Part shown: one piece after another, positions 600 through 37,300 of the stretch
Layout of the letters: every line of letters begins with the position of its first letter
How positions within the stretch are numbered: the stretch's first letter is position 1
Notes under the pieces: model-generated
Databases searched by the model: none
Told to the model about the DNA's origin: nothing
What the model saw: only the letters and a program-made list of their open reading frames with translations
Virus record (IMG/VR): IMGVR_UViG_2534681663_000013
Coordinates: 1 to 38,045 of that record
DNA from: a virus
Taxonomy: Duplodnaviria > Heunggongvirae > Uroviricota > Caudoviricetes
Direction: 5' to 3' (one strand)
DNA length: 38,045 nt
Position numbers and translations under genes: made by a program

Positions 600-651
600 G
601 GCCTTTGAATAAGACAAAAGGCTGCCTCATCGCTAACTTTGCAACAGTGCC
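1..651 (+). mobile_element. IS26 (IS6 family), partial; element continues upstream of the window
   Basis: Translation of 12-599 matches the C-terminal ~195 aa of Tnp26 as recalled (DHSTIYRWVQRYAPEMEKRLRWYW...GEMRLVSRVFEM). The reverse complement of the IS26 terminal IR GGCACTGTTGCAAA lies at 638-651. Confidence 0.9.
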
Positions 652-13088: not shown

Positions 13089-13250
13089 ACTTTATGGTGT
13101 CATAAACTTAAATCTAGCGCCGGGTAGAACAAGTTAATCGAACGATGTAGCGGCCATTTAGGCGTTACAGAAAGAACAGAATTTTAAATTTATAGTGAAG
13201 CCGTTGCAGCAACTTTGTGGGGTGCAACCAACACTGAACAGGAAAAGAAA

Positions 13251-16987: not shown

Positions 16988-16996
16988 GACGCGAAT

Positions 16997-18160
16997 ATGT
17001 TCACGGTAAATCATCAAACCAACAGGATTAGTCCTGTTAGGACAAAGAAGTTCAGTGAGTTGGGCTTTACTGAGCGCAAGCATCTTCAGGAGTGGTTGGC
17101 ACACGAACCTTCCGCATTGGGTGAAGAGTTGTTGATTATTCAAAAAGAGTTCGATGGCTTTGATGACACCCGTGAACGATTAGATTTACTGGCACTGGAT
17201 AAAGATGGCAACTTGGTCATTATTGAAAATAAGCTGGACGACAGTGGCCGAGATGTGGTGTGGCAGGCCCTTAAATATGCCTCTTACTGTGCCAGTTTAA
17301 CCAAAGCACAAATAGTTGACATTTACCAGCAGTACTTAGACCGCTATGAGCCTGTAACAGCAGAGGTTGACCTGTTAAATGCCCCTGCAAGTGCCTCAGC
17401 TAGAATATGTGAGTTTTTGGATGCGCCCGATCTGGATGAGTTAAAGCTCAACCTGGGTAACAGCCAGCGCATTATGTTAGTTGCGGCAAACTTTCGCAAA
17501 GAAGTGACCAGCACCGCGCTGTGGTTATTGGGTCAAGGAATTAGCATTGCCTGCTTCAAAATCACGCCTTATTCACTGGGTGAACAGCTACTGATTAATA
17601 TTGACCAGATCATCCCAACGCCGGAAGCGAAAGAGTTGATGATCGGCATTAATGCCAAGGAAGCGGAAGAAAAAACCACCGAAGTGGTACTAAAAAACCG
17701 CCATACGGTGCGGCGCGAATACTGGGAGCGTGCCTTAGAGGCGTTTCAGAAAAGCGCTTGCCAACTCTATAACAACATTAGCCCAAGCAAAGATCATTGG
17801 TTATCAGCAGGCTCAGGGTTAAGTGGGTGTCCGTATAACCTGATATTTCTGCAAAAAGAGCTTCGAGTAGAGCTTTGGATCAGCCGTGGGGTTACCGAAG
17901 AGAATAAATACCTTTTTGACTTGTTGAGTCAGTCCAAACAGGACATTGAACATACTTTTGGTGCAGAACTTGAGTGGATGAGGCTGGATGAGAAGAAATC
18001 TTGCCGTATTCAGTTTTCGACCAAAGCTGATGGGTTTAACAAAGATACGTGGCCCCAAGCGGTTGCGTGGCACTTAGAGCAGATGACAAAGTTAGAAAAA
18101 GCCTTAAAAGGACCGCTGCAAAAAGCGGCTGAGGCAATGAAACAGAAGAATTTTGATTAA
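16997..18160 (+). CDS. Hypothetical protein with N-terminal PD-(D/E)xK nuclease-like motif, embedded between hsdS and hsdR
   Basis: 387 aa. Motif ...RERLDLLALDKDGNLVIIENKLDD fits the D-x(n)-ExK pattern. Same strand and tight spacing with the hsd genes. Confidence 0.6.
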   Translation: MFTVNHQTNRISPVRTKKFSELGFTERKHLQEWLAHEPSALGEELLIIQKEFDGFDDTRERLDLLALDKDGNLVIIENKLDDSGRDVVWQALKYASYCASLTKAQIVDIYQQYLDRYEPVTAEVDLLNAPASASARICEFLDAPDLDELKLNLGNSQRIMLVAANFRKEVTSTALWLLGQGISIACFKITPYSLGEQLLINIDQIIPTPEAKELMIGINAKEAEEKTTEVVLKNRHTVRREYWERALEAFQKSACQLYNNISPSKDHWLSAGSGLSGCPYNLIFLQKELRVELWISRGVTEENKYLFDLLSQSKQDIEHTFGAELEWMRLDEKKSCRIQFSTKADGFNKDTWPQAVAWHLEQMTKLEKALKGPLQKAAEAMKQKNFD

Positions 18161-18174
18161 GGGAACTTACAATT

Positions 18175-21100
18175 ATGGTCAGTCAAACCAATGAACAAGC
18201 ATTAGAGTCGGCCATTGAGAAATGTCTGGCTGGGATCAGTACTGAAGAGCTCAAAGAGGGGCTGAGTCAGCAGTCACTGGGTGCTGGATACTTCATTGGT
18301 GCTGCTAGTGACTTTAATATGCAATATGCCATTGATGAACGTTTTTTCTGGCAATTTCTGCAAAAGACACAAGAAGTAGAGTTGGCCAAACTGCAAAAGA
18401 ACAACCCCTCAGATTGGCAGCGTAAGTTACTCGAACGATTTGACCGATTGATTAAGAAGCATGGCATTCTTCATTTACTTAAGAAAGGGCTAAGCGTAGA
18501 CGATGCTCACTTCAATTTGCTCTATCCAGCCCCTTTGGCAAGTAGTAGTGAGAAGGTAAAGCAAAACTTTGCAGATAACGTGTTTAGTTGTACTCGCCAA
18601 GTGCGCTATTCCATGGTAAATCCCCTACAAGAAATCGACATGGTATTGTTTATCAACGGAATACCCTTGATAACGCTGGAGTTGAAGAACGCATGGACCG
18701 GGCAAACAGCACGTTATCACGGCCAAAAGCAGTATCGAGATGATCGGGATGCAACTCAGCCATTGCTGACCTTTGGCCGCTGCCTAGTGCATATGGCGGT
18801 CGATACCGACGAAGTGTATATGACCACCAAGTTATCAGGTAGCAGTACATTCTTCTTGCCGTTCAATAAAGGTCACAATCTTGGACAAGGCAACCCGCCG
18901 AATCCATCTGGCCATAAAACGGCATACCTATGGCAAGAAGTATTCACTAAAGACAGCTTGGCGAATATTATTCAGCATTTTGTGCGTCTGGATGGGTCAA
19001 GCAAAGATCCATTACCAAAGCGAACCCTGTTCTTTCCTCGATACCATCAATTGGATGTGGTGAGAAAATTAGTAGACCATGCCGCCCAGCACGGTGTCGG
19101 TCAGACTTACTTAATTCAACACTCAGCCGGTTCAGGTAAGTCTAACTCGATTACCTGGGCAGCTTATCAGCTAATTGAAACCTATCCTGCTTCGTCTGAT
19201 GTGGCAGGCGGAAAAAGCTTGGAGCAGCCGTTGTTTGACTCTGTGATTGTGGTCACCGATAGACGCCTATTGGACAAGCAGCTGCGGGATAACATTAAAG
19301 AGTTTTCTGAAGTAAAGAACATTATTGCCCCAGCGAATAAGTCTTCTGAGCTTAAGCAGGCGCTGGAGAATGGCAAAAAGATTATTATAACGACGATTCA
19401 GAAATTCCCGTTCATTATTGATGGTATCACCGATCTTAGTGACAAGCGCTTTGCAGTGATCATCGATGAAGCACACAGCTCACAGTCTGGTTCGGCGCAT
19501 GACAATATGAACCGAGCGATGGGCAAGTCTGAAGTCGAAGAGGCAGAAGATGCTCAGGATAAAATCCTTCAGGCGATGAGATCGCGTAAGATGCGCGGGA
19601 ATGCGTCGTACCTGGCATTTACAGCGACACCAAAAAACAGCACTTTGGAGAAATTTGGTCAACGCCAAGAAGATGGCTCTTAAAAGCCGTTTCACTTGTA
19701 TTCGATGAAACAAGCCATTGAAGAAGGCTTCATCTTGGATGTGCTGGCAAATTATACGACGTACAAAAGTTATTATGAGATTGAGAAATCAATTGCTGAT
19801 AACCCTGAGTTTGATACCAAAAAGGCGCAGAAAAAACTCAGAGCTTATGTAGAACGAAGCCAGCAAACAATTGATATCAAGGCAGAGATTATGCTGGAGC
19901 ATTTTGTTCCGCATGTCGTGAATACGAAAAAGCTCAAAGGTAAAGGTAAAGGAATGGTGGTCACTCAAAATATTGAGGCGGCCATTCGATACTACAAAGC
20001 GATAAGGCGAATACTTGAGGAGCAAGGAAACCCGTTTAAAGTTGCCATTGCTTTCTCAGGAACCAAAGAAGTTGATGGTATTGAATATACCGAAGCAGAT
20101 ATTAATGGTTTTGCCGAGTCAGATACCAAAGATATGTTTGATACCGATGAGTATCGACTTTTAGTGGTTGCTAACAAGTATCTGACTGGGTTTGACCAGC
20201 CTAAGCTTTGCGCCATGTATGTAGATAAGAAGCTCGCCAGTGTCTTGTGTGTTCAGGCGCTATCTAGGCTCAATCGCAGTGCACCTAAGCTAGGGAAGAA
20301 AACAGAAGACTTGTTTATCCTGGATTTTTTCAACTCGGTTGAAGATATTCAATCAGCATTCGATCCTTTCTATACAGCAACGTCATTGTCCCAAGCTACA
20401 GATATAAACGTACTGCACGAGTTGAAAGATGAAATGGACGATGTCGGTGTGTACGAGTGGTATGAAGTTGAAGACTTTGTGACGCGTTATTTCAAGAATG
20501 AAGACGCCCAAACACTCAGTCCAATCATTGATATTGCCGCAGCGCGGTTTGACCATGAACTAGATCTTGAAGCTGAAGCTAAAGTGGACTTTAAGATTAA
20601 AGCCAAACAGTTCGTTAAAATCTATGGGCAGATGGCTTCTATCATGCCTTATGAAATGGTCAGCTGGGAAAAACTGTTTTGGTTCCTGAAGTTTTTAATA
20701 CCGAAATTGAAAGTGGAAGATCCCGATGCTGATGCTATTGATGAGCTTCTCGATTCTGTCGATCTGAGTTCATACGGTTTGCAACGTGTGAAGCTTAACC
20801 ACAGCATTAAACTTAGTGACCAAGAAGCGGAGCTTGATCCTCAAAATCCGAACCCACGTGGGGTGCATGGCGGTGAAAAAGAAACTGACCCGCTGGATGA
20901 AATCATTCGCACATTTAATGAGCGATGGTTCCAGGGCTGGAGTGCCACACCTGAAGAGCAAAAGGTTAAGTTCGTGAACATCGCTGAAAGTATCCGCAAT
21001 CACCCTGACTTCGAATCGAAATACAAAAACAACCCAGATCCCCATAATCGAGATTTGGCCTTCGAAAAAATGCTCAAGGAAATCATGCTGCAACGCCGTA

Positions 21101-21192
21101 AAGATGAACTTGAGCTCTACAAGTTGTTCGCAGGAGATTCAGCATTTAAAGCCTCGTGGACGCAAAGTATGCAACGAATGGTGGGTAGGTAG
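18175..21192 (+). pseudogene. hsdR: Type I R-M restriction subunit HsdR interrupted by an in-frame TAA at 19681-19683
   Basis: ORFs 18175-19683 and 19696-21192 share one frame. Helicase motifs I (SAGSGKSNS), II (IIDEAHSS) and III (FTATPKNS) lie before the stop, and the conserved segment KQAIEEGFILDV follows directly after it. Confidence 0.8.
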
Positions 21193-21589: not shown

Positions 21590-23040
21590 TAATGCCGATG
21601 TCAGTCTTTACCACCACTTAGTTTGCCGTTTAACCAGATTGGTGTGATTACTGATGCAGTGAAGACCTTCCCGCATCCTGACTCACACAGCGATCGACCT
21701 TTTGTGTCCTGCCCTGGACCCGTCGGTTGCCGGAAGCGCCTTCATGCGAGGCATCTCCTCACCGATGCGCGTGACTCAAGAAGGGCCTGACGGCTTGTCT
21801 CGTTACTGTCCTGTCCGGGTTATCTGTCTGGAGATTCAACTCTGTTTCCTCACAGGAGCTCTGTCATGGTTGATAAAGTTACCGAAGCTGCCGTTGTGGG
21901 TGGCGTGGATACACATAAAGATTTGCACGTTGCCGCTGTCGTAGATCAGAACAATAAAGTCCTTGGGACTCAGTATTTCTCCACAACACGACAAGGTTAC
22001 CGGCAGATGCTGGCATGGATGACCTCGTTTGGGACATTAAAGCGAATTGGTGTTGAGTGCACAGGTACCTATGGTTCCGGTTTGCTTCGTTATTTTCAGA
22101 ACGCCGGGTTAGAAGTTCTTGAGGTGACTGCTCCAGACCGGATGGAGCGACGCAAACGGGGTAAAAGTGACACAATTGATGCTGAATGTGCCGCTCATGC
22201 AGCATTCTCAGGCATCAGGACAGTTACTCCCAAAACGCGTGATGGCATGATTGAGTCCCTGCGGGTATTAAAAACTTGCCGAAAAACAGCAATATCAGCC
22301 CGCAGAGTCGCTCTCCAGATTATCCATTCAAATATTATCTCTGCCCCGGATGAATTACGTGAACAGCTCAGAAATATGACGCGCATGCAGCTCATCAGGA
22401 CCCTGGGTTCCTGGAGACCTGATGCCAGTGAATACCGCAATGTAACCAACGTTTATCGCATTTCATTAAAGTCCCTTGCCCGACGCTATCTCGAGTTACA
22501 TGACGAAATCGCTGATCTGGATGTCATGATTGCGGCAATTGTCGACGAGTTGGCACCTGAGCTGATTAAACGTAATGCTATCGGATACGAAAGCGCTTCA
22601 CAGTTGCTGATCACTGCCGGAGACAATCCTCAACGGTTAAGATCAGAATCAGGATTTGCGGCACTGTGTGGTGTCAGCCCGGTCCCCGTTTCTTCTGGAA
22701 AAACGAACCGTTACCGACTTAATCGTGGTGGAGATCGTGCTGCAAATAGTGCACTTCACATCATCGCCATCGGACGCTTACGAACTGACGCAAAAACAAA
22801 GGAATATGTCGCCAGGCGTGTAGCCGAAGGACATACAAAAATGGAAGCGATACGCTGTCTAAAGCGATATATCTCCCGCGAAGTTTACACGTTACTGCGC
22901 AATCAAAACAGGCGGATCAACAGTATCCCGATAACAGCTTGACTCTTAGAAGGGCGTCCAGGGCAGTCATTAGGTTCGTTTACAACAAATCGGGTGATGT
23001 ATACGGCGTTCACGCGAAGAACGACAGCTACCTTTTCGAT
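21590..23040 (+). mobile_element. IS110-family insertion sequence (ends approximate)
   Basis: Single DEDD-type transposase gene with ~280 bp of non-coding sequence upstream and ~100 bp downstream. Boundaries inferred from where IS911 homology stops and the next gene starts. Confidence 0.55.
21866..22942 (+). CDS. IS110-family (DEDD) transposase
   Basis: N-terminal RuvC-like motif VVGGVDTHKDLHVAAVVD and the typical C-terminal IS110/IS116/IS902 transposase domain (...SESGFAALCGVSPVPVSSGKTNRYRLNRGGDRAANSALH...). Confidence 0.9.
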   Translation: MVDKVTEAAVVGGVDTHKDLHVAAVVDQNNKVLGTQYFSTTRQGYRQMLAWMTSFGTLKRIGVECTGTYGSGLLRYFQNAGLEVLEVTAPDRMERRKRGKSDTIDAECAAHAAFSGIRTVTPKTRDGMIESLRVLKTCRKTAISARRVALQIIHSNIISAPDELREQLRNMTRMQLIRTLGSWRPDASEYRNVTNVYRISLKSLARRYLELHDEIADLDVMIAAIVDELAPELIKRNAIGYESASQLLITAGDNPQRLRSESGFAALCGVSPVPVSSGKTNRYRLNRGGDRAANSALHIIAIGRLRTDAKTKEYVARRVAEGHTKMEAIRCLKRYISREVYTLLRNQNRRINSIPITA

Positions 23041-23273: not shown

Positions 23274-23280
23274 TAACACT

Positions 23281-23880
23281 ATCCACTGCGGTGAGTAGCC
23301 AGCTCACCGCGTGTGAATCCGGCTCATAACCACTGTAGCGAGTAGAACACCCTTCAGGTATGCACCCCAACCACTGTAGTGAGCAAACCCTCTGCCACGA
23401 TATCAACTATCCACTGTAGTGAGTAAATTGGTGATTATCGGGGTCGCTATACACTGTAGTGAGTAAACAGGCGTTCACTGACTACAAACAACCACTATAG
23501 AGAGTGATGGAATGCCCCCTCCAGCGGATATCCACTATGGAGAGTAAATCTTCGCTGTTTTAAACGGATATCCACTCACTACAGTGGATAGAGGTCAAGT
23601 CAGCCAATTCTGCTCTTCACAGTGGATAGTCAACAATGAGGAGAGCGACGATAACCGCTGTAGAGAGTAGACTTAACAGAGATACCCAGTGACCGCTAAC
23701 CTCTCAGCCCTTGTTTTATCTATGTTTGCAACCACTAACATTTACTTCGCGATTTGTGCGCACTGCCTACAGTGGTTATTCTTCGGTTTCTTTTACTCAC
23801 TACAGTGGATATTGCATTTCCGATAAACAAAAAGGCTCACTATCTACTGTAGTGAGCCTTTTTACTCTCTACAGTGGTTG
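23281..23880. repeat. Iteron array (~14 copies of a ~17-19 bp CCACTGTAGTGAGTA-like repeat, both orientations) downstream of repA; incA-like copy-control locus
   Basis: Reiterated degenerate repeats (atccactgtagtgagtaa, aaccactatagagagtga, tccactcactacagtggata, and others) with irregular spacing. Confidence 0.8.
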
Positions 23881-23882
23881 GG

Positions 23883-24938
23883 CTATTTGCGAGCCTTTGC
23901 CTTGCGCAGCTCTTCGAGAATCGCCAGTTCTTCCTTGCTCAACATGACCATTTCCCCGTCTTTTTCTTCAGGGGCAACATCGATAATGTCCTCCGGATCA
24001 TCACCTGGCAAGATATCTTCTGGCTCTTCAGGCGTAGCCATAGATGGCGGCAGTGCCGAACGTAACTTCGGCCGTCTATAGTGGATGACGAAGTAGACCG
24101 AGCTGCCGCGTTTCACTTCAGTGTAATCGAGATAGCCGATCTCTCGCAGCTGCTCCATCGCCTTCCTGACTGTCGCATTCTGGGTAATGGTGCGGCTGGT
24201 TAAGTTAAGTCTGGCGCGTAAGCGAGCCAATGAGATTGGCGCCGGGTCTGGTGGCAAACTTTCAATGAAGGTGTAGAGCGCCTGCGCGGATTCCTTTCTG
24301 GAGAGTTCGTTGATGGCCCGAAGTTGCAAAAGCACCTTTTTGTCGAACTGGTAAAGTTCGAAAATCTTAGGATCGGCCTTCAGTTCGACCGTGTCATTCT
24401 TGGTACTGTACTTTGCCGTCTGCACAAGGTGCGTAACGTAATACTCTTCAGAGCCTTTGCTGCGGAATGAGATGGTGTTTGTGGCGATACGACTTAGAGA
24501 GCTGTCCAGGCGCTTACGTAACTTCGCGGACGATCTGGCTGTTGGTATGCCACAAAGTCTGACGAACTCGACGAACGGCAACGTGACGGTGTCACCAACA
24601 ACCTTGTGCTTGGCGAACGCGTGGATGATGCCCACCCATGTTTTGAAATCGTTATCCATATCAAGACGAAGACCAGCAATCCTTATATCCTCGTACCCTT
24701 CGGCTTTGGCCAGAGACAGCTGTTTGAGTTCAGCGGAGGCGTCCATAGAGACCATTTGCCCCTTTCTACCCCTGGATGTCGATTTCAGCGTCGGAACGAA
24801 GAGACCAAGACGCATCAGAGCAACAGGCTGAACTGTGTTGTTGGTGTTAGGAACTAACGTAACAACTTCGCCGGTCTTTTTGTCTGTTTCGGAAAATGCT
24901 TCGCTTATCGCAATGTTTTTATTGTCGTTTACGCTCAT
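23883..24938 (-). CDS. repA: Plasmid replication initiator RepA (P1 RepA / RepFIB-like)
   Basis: Signature segments [51 protein letters not shown] and LYTFIESLP match P1-type RepA as recalled. Flanked by iterons. Confidence 0.9.
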
Positions 24939-24974
24939 TCCAAATGTCTCTTTTTATTCGACGGCTTGGGTGCC

Positions 24975-25105
24975 TTTACTGATTACAGTGGATAGTAGCA
25001 CCCATCACAGTGGTTATCCTACCGCCTACAGCGGTTTTTCTACTCTCCATAGTGGTTGATTTACTCTCTATAGTGGTTGTTCTTCTCACTATAGTGGATA
25101 TCGAT
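24975..25105. repeat. Origin-proximal iteron cluster (6 direct copies of CTMYAGTGGWTR-like repeat) immediately upstream of repA
   Basis: Same repeat family as 23281-23880, all in one orientation. Position matches the oriR/incC iterons of P1-type replicons. Confidence 0.8.
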
Positions 25106-25147
25106 AACCTCTAAAGCCATGTGGCACAACGGTTTGCAGGGGCCGGG

Positions 25148-25220
25148 GATCTCTTTGGGTCTTTGTGGTTCTCTTTGGTTCTAACAGGGATCTGAATTAC
25201 TGGATCGGGCCTGTGTATAA
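25148..25220. promoter_or_regulatory. Origin-like module 1: 3 GATC sites plus a DnaA-box match (TGTGTATAA, rc TTATACACA)
   Basis: GATC at 25148, 25189 and 25203. DnaA-box consensus TTATNCACA matched at 25212-25220. Confidence 0.5.
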
Positions 25221-25379
25221 AAATCAGATAATTACAAAATCAGGCATCACTCCCCTTCTGGGGATAATGTGTGATCGAAATAAACACGCCGCAACGCAAA
25301 ATTTACAATATTTCCAAGAATATCAGCCATCTGCCGCAGAAAAACAGGCTCGGAGTTATCCAGTTAAAACATTGTCTCC

Positions 25380-25495
25380 TACTCACTACAGTGGATACCG
25401 ACTACTCTCCAGAGAGGTTGTTTTGCTCTTCATAGCGGTTATTATGCTCTCTACAGTGGTTATTTTGCTCCCTATAGTGGATAGTAACCCCTTCT
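25380..25495. repeat. Third iteron cluster (about 5 copies)
   Basis: cactacagtggatac, cttcatagcggttatt, ctctacagtggttatt and cctatagtggatag, same family as the other two clusters. Confidence 0.75.
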
Positions 25496-29328: not shown

Positions 29329-29383
29329 GCCAGATAAGGCCATTATTTGTGGCCTTAAACAATTTGTTTAATTAGTGGTGTAA

Positions 29384-29587
29384 TTATTGGAATCCCAGGC
29401 GAACTAAATCCATTGGGCAGAACAGATCTTCCACACCTTCGATAGACACGCAGTCAGAGCGGCGTAATTGTTCTTCTGATTTGCCTTCTCCGCAGATTTC
29501 CTTGATGACTCCCGTTGCACCATTCGTTGCCACCATCACTCGGCTGCCGGTAGTGATAGTGTTACGGTTGCGATCATAGGTCTTCAT
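29384..29587 (-). CDS. Hypothetical 67-aa protein
   Basis: Strong RBS on the minus strand (GAAAGGAGGAAACG-ATG). Confidence 0.5.
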   Translation of the reverse strand: MKTYDRNRNTITTGSRVMVATNGATGVIKEICGEGKSEEQLRRSDCVSIEGVEDLFCPMDLVRLGFQ

Positions 29588-29775
29588 CGTTTCCTCCTTT
29601 CACATGGGTCAAATCAGGTTTCAAAAATTGCCGTTTTCCATGTAGGTGCGATTTGCAAAATCTCAAGCGCCAAAACAAATTGTTTTCACCATCTTGTTAT
29701 TCAATTAACCCGTAAAGTTGACCAGTACCGTAATAAATACCACTGTTTATATGTGCAGTATTGCGAGGCGAGCAA

Positions 29776-30041
29776 TGGGCAGCAAGAATTCTAAATATGT
29801 GATCGTCTATAGGGGCGAAGCACTCAAGCACCTAATACCCGGACAGTTCGTTTTCTTCCAACGTGAAAAAGAATACGGTGGGGGGTTCTGGCTTGGTAAA
29901 ACGCATGAGGATGGGTTCGAATTTGTGCTGGAGCAACCCACTTCACTAAGTTACGGGCTTGCGTATCTGATCAGATTGTCGAGTGTCGAAGCCAGGTATA
30001 TGGAGTTTGTTGATGACATAGACGACTTCAAACTCACCTAG
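29776..30041 (+). CDS. Hypothetical small protein (start taken at ATG 29776; ORF track starts at 29718)
   Basis: GAGG 6 nt upstream of ATG 29776. Confidence 0.45.
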
Positions 30042-30082
30042 TCATCCCTTAAACATCTTGTTTTCTGCCTTTCGTTATTTGA

Positions 30083-30114
30083 GATAATAATACCAATAAG
30101 AAAACAAATTGTTT
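30083..30114 (+). promoter_or_regulatory. Promoter module A: -10-like GATAAT (30083-30088) followed 13 bp later by palindrome AAACA-AAT-TGTTT (30102-30114), then RBS AAGGAG
   Basis: Same architecture recurs at 32868-32899, 35385-35416 and 35869-35901. Confidence 0.5.
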
Positions 30115-30126
30115 AAGGAGTTAATC

Positions 30127-30363
30127 ATGTTCGGAACCGCGAAAGAAATTATCGAAAAGCTGGAGAACTACCCAGAAGACGAGCCGCTGCTGATGGTGAT
30201 GGGGCACAAGGAAGATGGAGGTGAAGGGCGACCAGACCTGACTGACGAACAGTGCGTTCAGGTTTTGCGAAAAATCAAAGAGTGCCATGACGCCAGCGTC
30301 GGCGTGAATTGGGATGTCATTTCTGACACGGCCAACATTCTGTTTCCAAAGGAGAAGGCATGA
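30127..30363 (+). CDS. Hypothetical small protein
   Basis: RBS AAGGAG at 30114-30119, ATG at 30127. Stop overlaps the next start (ATGA). Confidence 0.55.
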   Translation: MFGTAKEIIEKLENYPEDEPLLMVMGHKEDGGEGRPDLTDEQCVQVLRKIKECHDASVGVNWDVISDTANILFPKEKA

Positions 30364-30680
30364 TGCTGAAAATCACCGAATCGTATAAGACGGCGGTGAT
30401 CAGCACCGCCCACGTCACGGCAGCGGATTCAGAACGGCTACCCATTGCCTGCTTCGACCCACTTACTGATCGCGGGTTGAATTGGGTACACGGTACACAG
30501 TATGGATGGATTGTTCGTGCTGGAATGCGAGGGAATGACTGGAAGGAAGAATTGCGTGATTACGGCATTTCCCAAGAGGCGATCTCTAACATACAGGCCA
30601 TACGGGATGCCGGGTATGATTCGGTACAATTTGACTGTGATGCGGAGCTGGTGGATGGAATGCCAGCATGGGATTGGTAG
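30360..30680 (+). CDS. Hypothetical 106-aa protein, translationally coupled to the preceding ORF
   Basis: ATGA overlap with the upstream gene. Confidence 0.55.
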   Translation: MMLKITESYKTAVISTAHVTAADSERLPIACFDPLTDRGLNWVHGTQYGWIVRAGMRGNDWKEELRDYGISQEAISNIQAIRDAGYDSVQFDCDAELVDGMPAWDW

Positions 30681-30695
30681 ATATAACTACTAGCA

Positions 30696-31322
30696 ATGGC
30701 GGGAATAATTACCTGGAAAGTTGATATCATATACCCGCTTGTATTTCAAAATGGAATGGATGTAATGGAAATCGATACTTTAGAAAAAAAATCAGTTAAA
30801 AACCTCTACGCGTGGCTTATAGCAATACTGCCGTTTGTTGTCAGCGTCCCCCCTGCTGAGTACGACAATTACGTTATGGTGATTTCGTTCGTCATTGGGC
30901 TTGGACTGCTGGTCGCCGATCGCATGAATTTGACTGAGGCAGGCTATGAGCCACCATCATTCTTATGTGGGTTCTTTATCCCCCCTGTGTATCTCTGGAA
31001 ACGAGCGACGGTTCTTGGAAGTAACCGACTGCTGTTTATCGTATGGATTGTTGCCTTTGCTGCATCATTTTTCGTGTATAGCTTCAACGCAGATTCAGCG
31101 CTTGAAGAAGCTGCTTGCCCTATAGTTACCACTATTCTGAAAGAAAATAACGGTTCAGAAGCATCTAAATGCATGAAGGTAACAATTCAGGACAAAGTGA
31201 CGGACAAGTTCTACAAAGCCACGGCTACACTGGATAACGGTAATGACATTAACATCACTATCGAAATGATCGGTGACGAGAATTTCTACGTTCGCGTGCC
31301 TAATTACTACCTAAACGACTAA
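30696..31322 (+). CDS. Hypothetical integral membrane protein (start uncertain, alternatives at 30756 and 30765)
   Basis: Several hydrophobic helices (LYAWLIAILPFVVSV, VMVISFVIGLGLLVA, LLFIVWIVAFAASFFVY). Confidence 0.5.
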   Translation: MAGIITWKVDIIYPLVFQNGMDVMEIDTLEKKSVKNLYAWLIAILPFVVSVPPAEYDNYVMVISFVIGLGLLVADRMNLTEAGYEPPSFLCGFFIPPVYLWKRATVLGSNRLLFIVWIVAFAASFFVYSFNADSALEEAACPIVTTILKENNGSEASKCMKVTIQDKVTDKFYKATATLDNGNDINITIEMIGDENFYVRVPNYYLND

Positions 31323-32931
31323 CGGCTGCAACTCGTTGACATTGGCGGTCACAAATTGAGGATTTCTATAAGAGTCCGTTGATCGCCACTTCCCCCACCT
31401 CTCCAACCTACCCCAGCCCAGGGGTGACAAGGCATTTAAGCCAATTACACCCATAAGAAAACAAATAAATAACACGTCAACGAAAAGTCAACGCTTTCCT
31501 CTGATTTGGTCTAAAAAGTTGACGTTTTCGCAAGCCATCTCTTATACCCAAAATCCTGCGCACCAGAATCCATCTCCCTGCGACCAAAACGTCAAAAACG
31601 ACTCGTGATATCACTCAAAAACAGAAGCGCTCAGAAGCGCTCCCGTTGCGTTATATTGGGCATCTAAACAAGTTGTTTTCAGGCATAAGAAAACAAGTTA
31701 ACAACCCCCACAGGAAACCCAGAGACGCCATTACCCACAATCCCGGAAACACCCACCTCTTCCTGTCAGACTACCGAAAAGACCCACCTCATTGCCCCAG
31801 GCTACAGACCACCCACCTAATATTCCCAGGCAACCGAGAACGCGGTTCGCACGCGCAAACCCCGATACGTCATTACCCAATACACGGAGAAGAACAGCCA
31901 GAACGAAACCCCGGACAAACCCAGACAAGAACAGGAGCCGTCACAATCTCGTTTACCCACCATTACCCCGAAAGAGAGCGCAAATTCCTGAATAGCAGGG
32001 AACGCCATTACTTCATATGCGGAGAACAACTAAAGCGCCCTACTGCCATTACCCACACTTTCATCATTTCACGTAAACGAAGAGAAAAGCGCCCCTGCCA
32101 TTACTCCATACACGGAGAAGAACACTCACCAAAACGACGAGAACAACCCAGACGAAAACACAGAGAAGAACCACCTCAAGAAGAACGAAACCACATATGC
32201 CGGTAGAAAGAACAAACCACCCATTTCACCCAAAGGAATACTCGCCGTATAGAGCGTTATCAGAGGGAAGGTTTATGCCCACATAAGAGAGAAAATTCGT
32301 GGGAGGTATAAGTGGGAAGGGAAGGAGGGGTATCGCCACTTTTTCCGCATAAATTCAAGCCATAGTTTTCATCCCCCGTAACGTCCCTTTCCACCCCTTC
32401 GGTCAGCCTTCGGGCCATCCGGGAAAGCTATGTCCCTTTTCAGGAACGGGAGCGTCGCCGCAGGGAAAAGGCTTGAGGTTTTCAGGGAAACGGTGGGAAT
32501 CCCGCTATACGAACCGGGGAAAGGCTGGCTGCCGGTCGGGAAACGGGTACATCCCGGTACAGAGTGAGGGACGACTGCGGGAGCGGTGCGGGAAATCTTC
32601 GGGAGTGCGCCTTACTCTTCACTCGCCTGAAAATCGCGGGGGAGTGTCATTCCCTCTCGTGCAGCTACTGGACTCCATTCTGCCAGACCATCATTGGGTC
32701 TCAAGCTATTTCAGTAGGTTTTCGGGGAGAAGGATATTCTGCCCACCAGCCCCGTGGCGCGCGTAGAGCAGAATATCGTAAATACTGGCTCCCGTGTCGT
32801 TCCCGGATATTCACTGCCCAGCCTGGCTTTCACGACATAAAATCCTTTTCCGCCTTTGTCTTATTGCGATAATAACACCAACAAGTAAACAACATGTTTA
32901 GACGTTATATAAACGAAGTGAGGATGAAGAG
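31323..32931. repeat. 1.6-kb non-coding, repeat-dense region with strong strand compositional asymmetry
   Basis: No convincing ORF; the only long ORF (31646-32206) is low complexity. Repeats include ACCCACCT x3, a ~27-bp repeat GCCATTACYCMATACACGGAGAAGAAC x2, a GGGAAACGG-type motif at least 6 times, and the palindrome AAACAAGTTGTTT at 31666. Confidence 0.6.
32868..32899 (+). promoter_or_regulatory. Promoter module B: GATAAT (32868-32873) plus palindrome AAACA-ACA-TGTTT (32887-32899)
   Basis: Conserved block GCGATAATAACACCAACAAG shared with modules A, C and D. Confidence 0.5.
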
Positions 32932-33150
32932 ATGATTAAGATGCCTGTGACGGTTGAGGTGTGGGGCGTGGATTCCCTGGCTGAGTGTCTGGATGCAGTG
33001 GGGCCGGAGTTGTACCGCAAGTTGTGGTCGTTCGTCCCGGCAGAAGGGGAATCGCCCAAAGGGAAGGATATCTGGCACCTGCTGAGTGAAGATGAAAAGC
33101 GGGAGCTGGTGGACGCGGTACACAGCGAGTTCCCGGGCGACGAAGATTAA
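32932..33150 (+). CDS. Hypothetical 72-aa acidic protein
   Basis: RBS GAGGATGAAGAG-ATG. Followed by a terminator hairpin. Confidence 0.55.
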   Translation: MIKMPVTVEVWGVDSLAECLDAVGPELYRKLWSFVPAEGESPKGKDIWHLLSEDEKRELVDAVHSEFPGDED

Positions 33151-33157
33151 GAGTGAG

Positions 33158-33180
33158 GCCACCAGCACGGTGGCTTTTGT
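33158..33180 (+). terminator. Rho-independent terminator (GCCACC-agcac-GGTGGC + TTTTGT)
   Basis: Stem-loop followed by a T-run. The same stem family recurs at 35256-35271 and 35722-35745. Confidence 0.6.
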
Positions 33181-33289
33181 CGCTATTAACCTCCGGGGCA
33201 GCGCAGCACCGTAACGATATACTTTGTGGCCGTTTTCTTACTGGTATTGTTTACGCAATTCAGAAAACAACATGTTTAAGGATTGCGTT

Positions 33290-33619
33290 ATGTTTGCAAA
33301 TATCGACATCAACCAAATCAAGAAAATGACTCAAAAAGAGTTTGACCAGTTTTATGAGTTAGAAGGTTGGTCTTCCACGCTGATCAATTCGCGCTGGGTG
33401 CTTGAGCTGATGACTCGTGATGATGCTCCTGCTTTGATTATTTGCGACCTGGGTGATGATGCTGACTTTATGGATATGAGCGAATTTTGTGTGGATACAT
33501 ACAACCGCAGCCAGAAGTACTACTTCACATGCGATAGCGAGAATGACGTGATTTCTAAGCTCTATCTTCACCTTGTCCAGCATTGGGACGTTCAGGAGTT
33601 CCTTGATGTATTCGCGTAA
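33290..33619 (+). CDS. Hypothetical 109-aa acidic protein
   Basis: Palindrome AAACA-ACA-TGTTT at 33265-33277, then AAGGA and ATG 33290. Confidence 0.55.
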   Translation: MFANIDINQIKKMTQKEFDQFYELEGWSSTLINSRWVLELMTRDDAPALIICDLGDDADFMDMSEFCVDTYNRSQKYYFTCDSENDVISKLYLHLVQHWDVQEFLDVFA

Positions 33620-33779
33620 ACCCAACCAAAGCCAGCACCGCCTGCTGGCTTAACTTCTCTGTAGCCGCAGGGAAGAACCACCTTTAGATAATTCATGTGC
33701 CTGAGCAATATGCTTTGTAGCCGTTTTTACACTGGTATTATTTACGCCATTGAGAAAACAATTTGTTTACGGAGTGGTG

Positions 33780-34091
33780 ATGAATACTTCATTGGTGCTG
33801 GGTCTTGCTGAAGGTCAGGAGAGAAAAGAAAAACCAACCTTAATGGGGCATCTCACATTGCTGGATATCGTAGCGAATGGGACTTCTATCCGTCTGTTTC
33901 GTGAAAAAGCCATTACCTTCGACGCGGGCAATTTTACGCGCTATGTGATGGTAGTTCGTCGCCAGCGTGGAAGAGGGTGGATGTCGGTCCAGAAAATGTG
34001 GCCAGAGGACCAGCTTGAACTGGCGCTGATGGAAGCCAACCGTGTCGCCCAACAAGAGATCCAACGAGCGTCTGTTCAGGCGGTAGCTTAA
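33780..34091 (+). CDS. Hypothetical 103-aa protein
   Basis: Palindrome at 33756-33768, GGAG 6 nt upstream of ATG 33780. The upstream 60 bp are near-identical to the region upstream of 33290. Confidence 0.55.
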   Translation: MNTSLVLGLAEGQERKEKPTLMGHLTLLDIVANGTSIRLFREKAITFDAGNFTRYVMVVRRQRGRGWMSVQKMWPEDQLELALMEANRVAQQEIQRASVQAVA

Positions 34092-34125
34092 ACATGTGCA
34101 AGCAGTAGTTAGTCGAATGTACGAC

Positions 34126-34154
34126 AGCCCCGCCAATCCTTCGGGGCTTTTTTG
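34126..34154 (+). terminator. Rho-independent terminator (AGCCCC-loop-GGGGCT + TTTTTT)
   Basis: GC stem followed by a T6 run. Confidence 0.7.
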
Positions 34155-34180
34155 TATTGTAAGTACTTACTTATGATAAT
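34152..34180 (+). promoter_or_regulatory. Sigma70-like promoter: -35 TTGTAT, 17-bp spacer containing perfect palindrome GTAAGTACTTAC (34159-34170), -10 GATAAT
   Basis: Canonical spacing. RBS AAGGAGAG and ATG 34213 follow. Confidence 0.55.
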
Positions 34181-34212
34181 AAAATTAAAAATTAAACACT
34201 AAGGAGAGTGAA

Positions 34213-34608
34213 ATGACCGTTAAACGCGAAAATCTGACCCTGGATATGTATTATGCATCAGAGACGGAAAATGGAGACAAAGTTGCAAAAATTACAATTG
34301 TGCTACGCGATAATGCCTCCGGCGAAGAAGTTCACACCAGTACCTTAACTCGCACCGGCGAGGCCACAAAGGGAAAATATTCGGTGCGTTACCAAAGCAT
34401 CAGTAATGCTTCTGACCCTTTACTGATAAAACTGGAAACTCATTTCCGTGGCGCGGATCAGACGTTGTTTGAAAATTTGATGAAAAAGGTCGATGCGGTT
34501 TATACATCGAGTTTAAATACCAATAGTACCTGGATGGGACAACACGGTCTGCGAATAATCTCCGGCGAAAAGATCGACACCATTGTCCCTGAAAGCGTAT
34601 TCGCTTAA
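34213..34608 (+). CDS. Hypothetical 131-aa protein
   Basis: Strong RBS, with promoter upstream and terminator downstream. Confidence 0.6.
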   Translation: MTVKRENLTLDMYYASETENGDKVAKITIVLRDNASGEEVHTSTLTRTGEATKGKYSVRYQSISNASDPLLIKLETHFRGADQTLFENLMKKVDAVYTSSLNTNSTWMGQHGLRIISGEKIDTIVPESVFA

Positions 34609-34617
34609 TCCTCTTTG

Positions 34618-34646
34618 AATGGCGCGTAAACCGCGCCATTTTCTTA
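34618..34646 (+). terminator. Rho-independent terminator (AATGGCGCG-taaa-CCGCGCCATT + TTCTT)
   Basis: 10-bp stem followed by a T-rich tract. Confidence 0.7.
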
Positions 34647-34725
34647 TTCCCGATAACAATTTGTTTTCTGCCTTATCTGATTTGTGAAAATGATTTCACT
34701 GAAGCAACTTAATAAGGATACCATC

Positions 34726-35100
34726 ATGGGACTTGATATCTATATCGAGACGCAGCCTAAAAACGATCTGAATAACGAGGCATCCAGAAAGCAGGTTGCT
34801 TACTTCCGTAAGTTCAATGCGCTCGTTGGGTGGATGGAGCGCAACGTAGGTGAAGTCGAAAATTGTGAGCTTTTAGAATTAACGATGAATGACATTTGTT
34901 TTCTGAAGGCTCATTTGATGCACATAAACGAAAGTAATTGCGAAGTGTACTTACCTACCCGGGAAGGTTTTTTCTTCGGCAGTCAGGAGTACGATGAAGG
35001 TTACTGGCATGACGTGGATAAGCTGAAAAAACTTGTGGAAGACCTGATCAGGAACCACGACTTTCACAATAACAGACTGACGTTCCGTGCCTGGTGGTAA
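34726..35100 (+). CDS. Hypothetical 124-aa protein (ORF track starts at 34684; ATG 34726 has the better RBS)
   Basis: AAGGA 7 nt upstream of ATG 34726. Confidence 0.55.
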   Translation: MGLDIYIETQPKNDLNNEASRKQVAYFRKFNALVGWMERNVGEVENCELLELTMNDICFLKAHLMHINESNCEVYLPTREGFFFGSQEYDEGYWHDVDKLKKLVEDLIRNHDFHNNRLTFRAWW

Positions 35101-35102
35101 AT

Positions 35103-35246
35103 ATGGGCGATTTCAAGAAACGCCTGAAGGAGAGAGCCGAGATGGTCAGAAAGCGAAACGCCTCTTCTGTCATAAGATACGCAAGGCAGTTTAGTCGCAA
35201 CAACAAATCAGTTGAGGAAAAGATCCTTAGCGTAATCGGGCGATAA
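35103..35246 (+). CDS. Possible 47-aa basic protein (MGDFKKRLKERAEMVRKRNASSVIRYARQFSRNNKSVEEKILSVIGR)
   Basis: Starts 3 nt after the preceding stop and is followed by a hairpin element. Below the ORF-track length cut-off. Confidence 0.3.
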   Translation: MGDFKKRLKERAEMVRKRNASSVIRYARQFSRNNKSVEEKILSVIGR

Positions 35247-35384
35247 TTATTAAGGCCACCAGCATTGGTGGTCTTAAATGACTTTTAATAACCGAAGGTT
35301 AGTTTGAAACCTGGCTATCAACTTCCAGAACCTTTCTTGTGTATTCAGCCTGTATTAACTTCTTTTATGCCTTATCTACACTGC

Positions 35385-35416
35385 GATAATTACACCAACA
35401 AGAAAACAATATGTTT
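35385..35416 (+). promoter_or_regulatory. Promoter module C: GATAAT (35385-35390) plus palindrome AAACA-ATA-TGTTT (35404-35416)
   Basis: Same architecture and shared flanking sequence as modules A, B and D. Confidence 0.5.
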
Positions 35417-35429
35417 ACGCAGTGAGGAT

Positions 35430-35717
35430 ATGCTCATGACTGATTTCACCATTACCCCTAAAGCACAAAATGTATTCCTTGAATCATGGCTGGACTTGCC
35501 GGAAACAGAACAGCAAGAAATGGATCATGTGGAATATGACGAGCAGGTAAGCACGCGATTCTTCCACTTTGAGGGCTGCGTTTACGACATTGCCGACTTC
35601 ATGCGAGATGACCGCTTCCCTGAATGGCACGCAAGCTATCCACTAAACGCCTTCGCCATGCTGATGATCCGTGTGGATGATTCAGGGGATACCATCGACA
35701 TCGGTCTGCTCCACTAA
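35430..35717 (+). CDS. Hypothetical 96-aa acidic protein
   Basis: GAGGAT upstream of ATG 35430. Followed by hairpin AAGGCCACCA-atgc-TGGTGGCCTT. Confidence 0.55.
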   Translation: MLMTDFTITPKAQNVFLESWLDLPETEQQEMDHVEYDEQVSTRFFHFEGCVYDIADFMRDDRFPEWHASYPLNAFAMLMIRVDDSGDTIDIGLLH

Positions 35718-35847
35718 AGAGTAAGGCCACCAATGCTGGTGGCCTTAAATGACCATCCTGTTTCCCGCAGGCTAAAAACACCAACCTCTTACCTCCAGGC
35801 AACCGACAAACCCACCTGTTCCCGTCCGGCTACCGCAACTTTCCACT

Positions 35848-35901
35848 TTGACGCCTTATTCGTACAACGATAATTAACACCAACAAGAAAACAATTTGTT
35901 A
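35848..35901 (+). promoter_or_regulatory. Promoter module D: -35 TTGACG (35848-35853), -10 GATAAT (35869-35874), palindrome AAACA-ATT-TGTTA (35889-35901)
   Basis: 15-bp spacer between the hexamers. RBS AAGGAATTAATC and ATG 35922 follow. Confidence 0.55.
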
Positions 35902-36404: not shown

Positions 36405-36412
36405 CTGAGAAG

Positions 36413-36436
36413 AGGGCCAGAAACGGCCCTTTCTCT
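36413..36436 (+). terminator. Rho-independent terminator (AGGGCC-agaaac-GGCCCT + TTCTCT)
   Basis: GC stem followed by a T-rich tract. Confidence 0.6.
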
Positions 36437-36995
36437 ATAGCCACCAGCTGCCGCAGGGAAATTTTCAGAAACGGCGAGGAACGCATTCATGAGCCGACGG
36501 GAAACGGCCAAGATTTTTTCGGGAAACGGCGGGGGTCGCCTTTATGTAGAAAACTGAGCGGGAGAAACCCGGAATCGCGCCAGAAATTGCGTAGCGGCGC
36601 TGGGGTAGCGCTGGTGGGGGTTTCAGCCCCTGGGCCATCCAGATAGCTTTCGCTATGTGATTATGTGAATCCGTGGGTAAATCACTGTAAGCGCGTACAC
36701 GTTGCCCAACGTGGCAATCATATGCGAGCGGATACAAAACAACACAAAGAGCCGATCCGCGCCGACAAATAAACGCGGATCACATAGCAAGACTAAAAGC
36801 CAATGATTAACCATACTCTATAGCGCAATATAACGCGTTTTAAGCGCGTTAATGTGTTAAGTAATGTGTATGTACTAACAAGGATATAAAAGCGCGTCTA
36901 TGGCGTTATTTTGGTGCTTATTTTTATGTTGTTGGAGCGAGTTAAAGACAATAAAAAACGCGCTAATGATGGCGCGTTATGGTGGGAGTATTGGA

Positions 36996-37025
36996 AACGA
37001 AAAAAGCGCCCATAGTGGGCGCTCG
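36996..37025 (-). terminator. Palindromic hairpin AGCGCCCATAGTGGGCGCT with flanking A and T runs; terminator for the 37029-37259 gene
   Basis: On the minus strand the hairpin is followed by TTTTTTCG. An identical stem recurs at 37279-37299. Confidence 0.6.
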
Positions 37026-37028
37026 ATT

Positions 37029-37259
37029 TTATTTGTGTAAACTAATTTTGAATCCCATTTCTACAAACGCTTTTAACATTAAAAATATATCAGCGTCATT
37101 CACGTCTGCTTTTTTTCGCTCCTGGTCGTTCAATAAGTCAATTTTGCGCGTTGTTTCATTTATAAACTCGACTGCGCGCCCAGCGATCCCAGCGATCCCA
37201 GCGATGCGATTAACATAATATTCATTATGGACGTTAACGCCAGCGATAAGAACAAACAT
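37029..37259 (-). CDS. Hypothetical 76-aa protein containing an (IAG)x3 repeat
   Basis: Strong RBS (AAGGAG, 7 nt) on the minus strand. Encoded by a 9-bp tandem repeat CCCAGCGAT x3 at about 37180-37206. Confidence 0.5.
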   Translation of the reverse strand: MFVLIAGVNVHNEYYVNRIAGIAGIAGRAVEFINETTRKIDLLNDQERKKADVNDADIFLMLKAFVEMGFKISLHK

Positions 37260-37275
37260 GATTAAGCTCCTTAAA

Positions 37276-37300
37276 ACTAGCGCCCATAGTGGGCGCTATA
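37276..37300 (-). terminator. Second copy of hairpin AGCGCCCATAGTGGGCGCT; terminator for the 37310-37813 gene
   Basis: On the minus strand the stem is followed by TTTTAAGG. Confidence 0.55.

Follow-up and report, generated by a model that had tools for sequence, protein, structure and literature searches.

A gene-free block in the early region of an SSU5-type phage-plasmid

The window analysed here comprises positions 1-38,045 of a virus record (IMG/VR IMGVR_UViG_2534681663_000013). It is an SSU5-type phage-plasmid, as demonstrated by the database matches of the block described below and by its gene content, namely a phage DnaE, a RecA with an intein and a Rep3-type RepA with iterons, in addition to a type I restriction system and transposase fragments. 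Positions 31323-32931, placed among small rightward genes of unknown function in the early region, which is probably under repressor control, form a block that a first-pass annotation had described as free of open reading frames (ORFs), packed with short repeats and strongly asymmetric between the strands. The present analysis shows that this block is selected but does not code for a protein, and suggests, tentatively, that it may be a control module for lytic development.

Matches to the block at high identity occur in 659 plasmid records, and phage SSU5 is 93% identical to it over the first 78% of the region. A more sensitive search extends the set to 859 plasmid records with identity down to 65%, of which 698 show coverage of at least 80% and a block length of 1510-1610 nt. 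The hosts belong to Klebsiella, Escherichia, Enterobacter, Salmonella, Citrobacter, Cronobacter and Shigella. Among complete E. coli genomes, 215 of 5426 carry the block, plasmid-borne every time; under the 12 best E. coli matches, the Prokaryotic Genome Annotation Pipeline places no feature in 10 and a hypothetical protein in 2. In the phage collection only SSU5-type phages match, and a search in distant mode returns 12 records, all of the SSU5 type. The record counts per genus are the same for the block and for the phage dnaE in Escherichia, Enterobacter, Salmonella and Citrobacter, and differ by at most one in Cronobacter and Shigella; in the same plasmid record search, Yersinia is represented by 63 records with dnaE, none of which matches the block. 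Block sequences were gathered from plasmids, IMG/VR, GTDB genomes and metagenomes and reduced to 20 representatives below 97% identity, which comprise four clades and mosaics: A (the window and SSU5), L013, Klebsiella and B (phage Cyrano). Scans of IMG/VR and of GTDB genomes and metagenomes for farther relatives gave only these four clades again. One match, 95.8% identical to the block, stems from a contig binned as a "Bacillota bacterium" metagenome-assembled genome (JAEWTL010000044.1, positions 5936-7534), which is almost certainly a mis-binned enterobacterial phage-plasmid contig. The block is not mentioned in the literature searched, and the databases hold no annotation of it except scattered hypothetical ORFs. 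A block of this kind has not been described before; the kinds of element proposed for it below are all known, and their combination and size are new.

In the alignment of representatives the block is colinear along its full length, near-constant in length in the four clades, and marked by conserved islands. When clade A is compared with the Klebsiella or L013 clade, the block shows 72-80% identity; for the flanking genes, these comparisons give an identity of 0.77-0.96 at codon positions 1 and 2 and of only 0.50-0.63 at position 3. Thus, the block is more conserved than the synonymous sites of its neighbours, and by this comparison it is under purifying selection.

The ORFs which do occur in the block, of 186, 97 and 102 amino acids, contradict the description "ORF-free" in the literal sense, yet none of them is conserved: their positions differ among the clades, and the 186-residue ORF is reduced to 57 residues in a relative with 96% identity. 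The longest same-frame open stretch common to 17 of the 20 representatives measures 176 nt and falls in a T-poor stretch, in which stops are rare anyway. Substitution counts by codon phase differ by at most about 1.6:1 in the block; in the flanking genes, used as a positive control, some 40-50% of third positions differ versus 4-23% of first and second positions. A hydrophobic minus-strand frame (32126-32284) is open in all clades, and the one deletion within it is in frame. Since adenine is scarce on that strand, an open frame is to be expected there; clades A and B differ in it by changes that look mostly non-synonymous on inspection, and codon periodicity is absent. SSU5, Cyrano and some plasmids have a few annotated ORFs over the block, at positions and on strands that vary. 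Pfam gives no match for those of SSU5, and Pfam and PHROGs searches with the flanking ORFs return only families of unknown function or nothing. The lack of a kept frame and of third-position bias among the 20 representatives speaks against a protein-coding gene, and the earlier judgement that the region has no credible coding potential is thereby borne out.

The proposal that the block might be a structured non-coding RNA did not fare as well. Rfam has no match anywhere in the window at the gathering score, and with E values up to 10 only three chance-level matches appear (13-16 bits versus cut-offs of 45-48 bits), none of them to CsrB or CsrC; ARAGORN reports no tRNA or transfer-messenger RNA. 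Folding is no better than that of dinucleotide shuffles, with z-scores of +0.69 and +0.51 for the two strands of 32250-32900, and of -1.47 (plus) and -0.12 (minus) for 31450-32260. A covariation scan of the 20 representatives on both strands, with G-U pairs allowed and at least 90% of sequences paired, yields only low-complexity helices of 4-5 nt and, above 9 bp, none whose covariation is convincing, its power being low with only four clades; RNAalifold was uninformative on the blocks. Two local inverted repeats are kept (31487-31523 and 32733-32777). An unstructured non-coding transcript of the block remains likely, because conserved putative promoters point into it.

Promoters, repeats and composition of the block

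The features of the block and of its paralogous elements in the early region are listed below; promoters, terminators and operators are predictions.

31323-31454, no strand: left linker after the upstream gene; conservation 0.91/0.78, then 0.48
31333-31359 and 31363-31390: conserved boxes CGTTGACATTGGCGGTCACAAATTGA and TTTCTATAAGAGTCCGTTGATCGCCAC in the left linker
31391-31432: poorly conserved pyrimidine tract
31434-31475: start of a degenerate copy of the early-promoter module; 31434-31466 is similar to the module at 30077-30109
31455-31531, minus: most conserved core, with an A/T-rich tract, GTCAACG at 31476 and 31487 and inverted GTTGAC at 31518; conservation 0.88-0.90
31520-31549, plus: possible rightward promoter, TTGACG, variable spacer of 17-18 nt, TTATAC/TATACC
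31646-31700, plus: rightward promoter-like element, TTGCGT, N16-17, CAAGTT, overlapping palindrome AAACAAGTTGTTT (31666-31678)
31686-31700, plus: half copy of the operator palindrome
31700-32250, no strand: A+C-rich block, its minus strand rich in G+T; A 0.37, C 0.34, G 0.17, T 0.13
31727, 31868, 32004, 32045 and 32097: five GCCATTAC-type units in the A+C-rich block
31747-31840: three 30-nt ACCCACCT..CAGGCTACCG units in the A+C-rich block
31871-31933 and 32099-32160: internal 63-nt duplication in the A+C-rich block
32299-32340, plus: conserved purine/G-run block GTGGGAGGTATAAGTGGGAAGGGAAGGAGGGGTATCGCCAC, conservation 0.89, marking the switch from A+C-rich to G-rich sequence
32413-32612, plus: array of GGGA(A/G) units, with five longer YC(A/G)GGGAAA(A/C)GGCT units about 21-42 bp apart
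32568-32611, plus: four 11-nt units after the longer units of the GGGA array
32704-32677, minus: leftward sigma-70 promoter with extended -10, TTGAGA (32704-32699), 16-nt spacer, TGG CAGAAT (32685-32677); scan hit
32709-32733, no strand: block TTTCAGTAGGTTTTCGGGGAGAAGG, nearly invariant, located upstream of the leftward promoter and repeating the AGGTTTTC(A/G)GGGA unit of 32476
32733-32777, no strand: 10-bp inverted repeat GATATTCTGC / GCAGAATATC, with a Chi site between the arms on the minus strand (32743-32750)
32840-32931, plus: early promoter, operator AAACAACATGTTT (32887-32899) and Shine-Dalgarno sequence of the downstream 72-residue gene, whose ATG is at 32932
33664-33683: intergenic GCCGCAGGGAAGAACCACCT element
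35747-35838: three 30-nt ACCCACCT units between a terminator hairpin and a promoter
36450-36530: GGGAAACGGC units 22 nt apart, after the last rightward gene

The leftward promoter, with a predicted start near 32670, was compared in 24 distinct sequences from the four clades. The TTG of the -35 element, the TGG and the -10 element are kept, whereas the transcribed side and the central part of the spacer are variable, which at the level of the alignment is the classic comparative signature of a promoter; a near-invariant stretch of 20 nt lies directly upstream. At the other end, 1.2 kb away, the core reads on the minus strand as a hairpin followed by a U-rich tail, UUUUCGUUGACGUGUUAUUUAUUUGUUUUCUU, and a terminator scan flags 31494-31474 on that strand; promoter and hairpin/U-tract bracket the conserved core region. 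In 17 sequences the consensus of this hairpin (31524-31455 with the U-tract) is 97% paired, one pair being U-G in five and U-A in two. Its GTCAAC/GTTGAC stem (31487-31523) shows no covariation above shuffles and, being nearly invariant, is uninformative on structure; GTCAACG alone is not enriched in the window (8 occurrences versus 4.7 expected). Segment 31455-31531 is a candidate for the terminator of a leftward transcript, for a protein-binding site, or for both. The inverted repeat GATATTCTGC/GCAGAATATC has 86% of its cells paired and two pairs altered on both sides, a score reached by 15 of 500 shuffles.

In the rightward direction, both hexamer regions of 31520-31549 are kept in all clades with a variable spacer; the case for a promoter there is weak, since the -10 element lacks its final T. 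The weaker promoter-like element at 31646-31678 faces the leftward promoter and has no gene behind it. Two convergent promoters also occur in the control region of the temperate coliphage 186 (pR/pL), where they are 62 bp apart; the putative promoters of the block are separated by about 1 kb, and no repressor or cro-type genes are read from them. An AGCGCT...AGCGCT hairpin at 31625-31642 was rejected as a terminator, being present only in the window and one close relative.

The palindrome AAACAANNTGTTT has 13 matches in the window with at most one mismatch (9 exact), versus 2 expected, and 12 of them lie within 29357-35901, mostly between the -10 element (GATAAT or TATTGT) and the Shine-Dalgarno sequence of small rightward genes. 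At least eight of these genes are preceded by a repeated module that consists of CTTTg..GCCtT, a -10 of GATAAT/TATTGT, about 15 nt, AAACAANNTGTTT, the Shine-Dalgarno sequence and ATG. The palindrome is probably the operator of the prophage repressor, and the set of modules would be the repressor regulon. Two copies lie inside 31323-32931, at 31666 and 32887. The second forms part of the module at 32840-32931, which shares a 64-nt similarity with the modules at 35354 and 30061 and belongs to the downstream 72-residue gene rather than to the block.

The repeats, motifs and skew which the first-pass annotation had named are all present, with coordinates correct to within 1-2 nt. ACCCACCT occurs three times, at 31751, 31782 and 31811, within 30-31-nt units (65-71% identity), and the repeat of about 27 nt at 31868-31896 and 32096-32124 has a third copy at 32003-32030. 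GCCATTAC has four copies in the block versus 0.97 expected for the whole window. On the plus strand of 32250-32760, GGGA is found 17 times versus 5.8 +/- 1.9 in dinucleotide shuffles and GGGAAA 6 times versus 0.5 expected; GGA is found 21 times versus 14.1 expected, a count matched by 3 of 500 shuffles. Periodicity of the GGGA array is strongest at 10.5 bp (R = 0.72), and a core subset of its longer units (YCRGGGAAAMGGCT) is retained in clades B, Klebsiella and L013. In all, four families of direct repeats in the same orientation are spread over 1.3 kb of the block. Copies of these families elsewhere in the early region always have the orientation seen in the block; CCAGGCAACCGA is found at 31826 and 35795, and GCCGCAGGGAA at 32457, 33664 and 36450. 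The idea of a binding array for a regulatory protein remains compatible with the common orientation of the repeats, the 10.5-bp phasing of GGGA and the copies beside promoters and terminators. Tandem Repeats Finder reports just two repeats in the block, 10 nt x 2.1 and 24 nt x 2.6; a CRISPR array or ToxI-type tandem repeats are not supported, as there are no regular head-to-tail repeats and no toxin gene downstream. The block contains a single GATC (31381), versus 4.4 per kb in the whole window.

Nowhere else in the 38-kb window is the excess of C over G as extreme as in the A+C-rich block (31700-32250). The skew of this block is present in all clades, even where the sequence diverges, with GC values of -0.32 to -0.45 and AT values of +0.44 to +0.51.

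Expression in lysogens was taken from a published RNA-seq re-analysis of E. coli LF82 carrying the clade-B element Cyrano, in which two annotated ORFs overlie the block (PMC9928086). CYRAN_103, corresponding to about 31440-31800 of the window, has 5 fragments per kilobase per million (FPKM), the floor of the data, and CYRAN_104, corresponding to about 32290-32700, has 14 (PMC9928086 supplement); the gene upstream of the block has 57, and a lysogeny-expressed gene elsewhere 7084 (PMC9928086). As the overlying ORFs are near background, the block is silent in the plasmid state, like the adjacent operator-bearing genes. The same publication places CYRAN_43 (phage Cyrano OV696614, 40268-40822), a hypothetical gene beside the integrase and repressor, about 700-fold above local background in lysogens (PMC9928086); it is unrelated to the block.

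The block also differs between close relatives. One sequence, L031, is 96-100% identical to the window from 32736 rightward, versus 37-79% per 100-nt bin (mostly 58-79%) over 31336-32735, and the recombination joint lies inside the 32733-32777 inverted repeat, where a mismatched hybrid stem results. Since the L031 block has diverged while its right flank is 96-100% identical, the alignments indicate that the block exists as divergent alleles exchanged among otherwise near-identical elements. Immunity regions and origin-initiator pairs are likewise swapped as divergent alleles in other temperate phages, and the allelic divergence seen here is as would be expected for a specificity determinant. 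Insertion sequence (IS) insertions and segment replacements also occur in the block, and large Klebsiella and Shigella plasmids carry IS-bounded remnant copies in which it is shortened by IS elements.

The plasmid replicon of the element lies elsewhere. RepA, of the Rep3 family, is encoded on the minus strand at 23883-24938 and is flanked on both sides by 21 iterons in total (23279-25485; consensus tTTTACTCaCTACAGTGGaTA), some of them 21 bp apart, in a layout which resembles P1 oriR/incA. A position weight matrix built from these 21 iterons, which themselves score 16-35 bits, gives a best value of 7.7 bits in the block and at most 4 for the rest. A BLAST hint of similarity between the GGAGAAGAAC unit and the iteron was rejected by this matrix. 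On these scores the block is neither the RepA plasmid origin nor a RepA iteron field. An isolated iteron-like site of 15.9 bits overlaps the Shine-Dalgarno sequence of the gene at 34213.

Interpretation of the block

The reading that we prefer, and which we put forward only tentatively, is that the block is a conserved, gene-free control module of the early region, a cis site for lytic development that is activated by transcription and bound by proteins, with the lytic origin as its likeliest identity. Upon induction the block would be transcribed. Starting near 32670 and ending near 31460, the leftward RNA would have much G+U and little C and hence be a poor Rho substrate, and the rightward RNA, C-rich and untranslated, would be an ideal one; the skew would thus give the block a direction. 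The phased direct repeats have the look of DNA bound by proteins, and phage proteins bound to the arrays would, together with transcription, create a cis-acting nucleoprotein site. Such a lytic origin would be separate from the RepA/iteron plasmid origin at 23.2-25.5 kb. In favour of this reading are the conservation and non-coding nature of the block, the leftward promoter, the hairpin, the operator, the repeats and their phasing, the skew, the separate RepA origin, the exchanged alleles, the silence in lysogens, and the fact that the element encodes DnaE and RecA, that is, its own replisome.

Among known systems, the lytic replicon of phage P1 (C1-controlled P53, kilA-repL, oriL) offers a parallel, in that a phage-plasmid with a RepA and iteron replicon possesses a separate, operator-controlled unit. 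In lysogens the P1 unit is silent, and lytic replication depends on its transcription. However, the oriL of P1 lies inside a protein gene, repL, whereas the block is gene-free, has no sequence similarity to it and is a candidate origin only. The origins primed by transcripts, such as ColE1 RNA II, T4 oriF/oriG and the mitochondrial light-strand promoter with its conserved sequence blocks, share with the block a promoter that reads into a gene-free stretch of several hundred nucleotides, a strong G/C strand skew and blocks of G-runs. The resemblance is without homology, and at 1.2 kb the putative transcribed stretch is longer than any of them. With regard to R-loops, the promoter reads into a stretch with a non-template GC skew of +0.32 to +0.45, but G amounts to only 34% of the non-template strand, and the clustering of C-runs is not conserved in all clades. 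A bolder and rather improbable reading has a leftward 1.2-kb non-coding RNA, its extreme G+U composition selected for escape from Rho termination, that would either prime lytic replication through an R-loop on the A+C-rich template or titrate a host RNA-binding protein.

Several observations weigh against a lytic origin. No initiator gene adjoins the block, and the genes which flank it vary from clade to clade. Direct repeats with helical phasing are seen, but the A/T-rich stretches, at 31433-31475 and 31663, are short (about 40 bp); the block has no DnaA box without mismatch, only one-mismatch TTACCCACA words within the GCCATTAC units, and no site for integration host factor. The GGGA phasing is modest, since about 1% of random placements reach the same R in the 9.5-11.5 band and 5% over all periods. 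The paralogues of the repeat arrays adjoin ordinary promoters and terminators, and the copies at 33664, 35747 and 36450 are explained by transcription control no less well than by an origin. In the SSU5/pHCM2 lineage about 32585-32830 is swapped for other sequence with a small leftward ORF; as SSU5 is viable, this part, with the leftward promoter, is replaceable; the replacement retains something that reads leftward into the block. Finally, the Cyrano counts are given per annotated ORF, with strandedness not established, and they skip the middle of the A+C-rich block.

A close rival, only slightly less probable than the preferred reading, is that the block acts in trans as a lytic long non-coding RNA, either as a sponge for a host RNA-binding protein (Rho, Hfq or CsrA, for example) or as the antisense partner of an opposing transcript. 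Read leftward, such a sponge would be an RNA of about 1.2 kb rich in G+U, and read rightward one that is first A+C-rich and then GGA-rich. The promoter and terminator that bracket exactly the conserved core would suit it, as would a composition conserved where the sequence is not, and every repeat array has the same orientation relative to transcription. As in CsrB/CsrC or CrcZ, many short repeated motifs, GGA-containing (AUACACGGAG units, with the GGA excess in 32250-32760 given above) or A/C-rich, are set in a weakly structured, length-conserved non-coding backbone. Yet the block is 3-4 times longer than these RNAs and has no Rfam match, to CsrB or otherwise, even at the permissive E value; GGA is only mildly enriched, the enriched word being GGGA(A) rather than the CsrA-type ANGGA in hairpin loops, and GGA density is about half that of CsrB. 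Expression in lysogens is at background, and it is not obvious what a phasing of 10.5 bp would mean for an RNA.

A directional transcription barrier or long attenuating leader, in effect a giant rightward loading site for Rho, is unlikely. It would block read-through from lysogeny-expressed accessory genes into the early lytic genes, and could render early expression dependent on an anti-terminator. Rho prefers C-rich, G-poor, untranslated RNA, and only when read rightward does the block show the sequence characters of a Rho utilization (rut) site: over 550 nt the fraction of C is 0.34 and that of G 0.17, folding is at its weakest, and no ORF is conserved. When 78-nt windows of the whole 38 kb are ranked by excess of C over G, 19 of the first 40 lie within 31500-32260; the paralogous array at 35751-35781, which comes after a hairpin terminator, accounts for four of the first eight. 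Terminators of the rut type such as lambda tR1 likewise combine C-rich, G-poor, untranslated sequence with a position downstream of an early promoter, but extend over about 80 nt. The drop from 57 to 5 FPKM between the upstream gene of Cyrano and the start of the block fits a barrier as well; against a barrier, it takes place ahead of the A+C-rich block. Moreover, 1.5 kb is far beyond what a terminator needs, all genes downstream have promoters of their own, and the GGGA array, the leftward promoter and the allelic divergence are left unexplained.

We regard as distinctly improbable a functionless accretion of duplicated intergenic modules after gene loss, kept as spacing or as a scaffold for recombination. 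Parts of the block are indeed recognisable as copies of the early-promoter module and of intergenic repeat arrays, it contains the internal 63-nt duplication, and it tolerates IS insertions and segment replacements. Against this stand its colinearity and constant length in four clades down to 65% identity, conservation above that of the neighbours' synonymous sites, and the per-genus counts that track the phage dnaE in Escherichia, Enterobacter, Salmonella, Citrobacter, Cronobacter and Shigella; phage genomes, in addition, rarely retain 1.5 kb of useless DNA.

A site for plasmid maintenance, whether a partition centromere or a copy-control iteron field (of the type of R1 parC, P1 parS or P1 incA), is very unlikely, and the earlier suggestion of a partition or centromere-like site is not supported. 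The direct repeats at 11 and 21-22 bp would be in keeping with it, as the iteron fields of P1 incA, F incC and R6K gamma also consist of same-orientation direct repeats about two helical turns apart, and the ATTTCAC and TCGCCA words of the block resemble boxes A and B of P1 parS. However, no Par domains are found in the neighbouring ORFs or elsewhere in the window, which contains no ParA/ParB genes; the repeats, four families over 1.3 kb with no adjacent initiator gene, are not RepA iterons by the matrix scores given above; the dnaE-positive Yersinia records, which we take to be stable pMT1-type plasmids, lack any match to the block; and large plasmids in which it is shortened by IS elements persist. 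Equally improbable is a large structured RNA or a hidden protein gene, since the two conserved inverted repeats, one with two compensatory pairs, and the open minus frame at 32126-32284 are set against an empty Rfam search, z-scores of -1.5 to +0.7, low-complexity helices only, the expectation of an open frame in an A-poor strand, the lack of periodicity and the absence of a Pfam match for the SSU5 ORFs.

Other features of the window and significance

Outside the block, a second gene-poor stretch (36405-37300) separates the rightward early genes from leftward genes; it contains AACGCG-type repeats and a bidirectional terminator-like hairpin, and possibly represents the lysis-lysogeny switch. 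Chi sites number 12 in the 38-kb window, versus 0.8 expected, and the Chi octamer GCTGGTGG is found in the stems of intergenic terminator-like hairpins at 33156-33178, 35250-35275 and 35724-35750 (also 36441 and 36610). The phage RecA (10193-12532) is split by an intein with a LAGLIDADG homing-endonuclease domain. Accessory insertions occupy 12-3413, 13215-21192 and 21866-22942 and comprise Tn3-family transposase fragments, an IS110-family transposase and the type I restriction-modification system, which is complete (hsdM, hsdS, DUF4268 and a split hsdR).

Clinical Klebsiella, E. coli, Enterobacter and Salmonella frequently harbour SSU5-type phage-plasmids; pHCM2 of S. Typhi belongs to the group, and some of these elements carry resistance genes. 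A gene-free block of 1.5 kb, as conserved as the genes that surround it, is unusual in a phage. The operator palindrome and the promoter module together provide a first map of the probable repressor regulon of this group. If the leftward RNA indeed exists and acts as outlined above, it would represent a phage long non-coding RNA or an RNA-primed lytic origin of a kind not yet described in enterobacterial phages. If the block is a specificity determinant, be it for origin, immunity or incompatibility, its alleles could explain which of these elements coexist and which exclude each other. The block is the obvious place in which to seek the lytic origin, the immunity logic and the early-gene control of the group.

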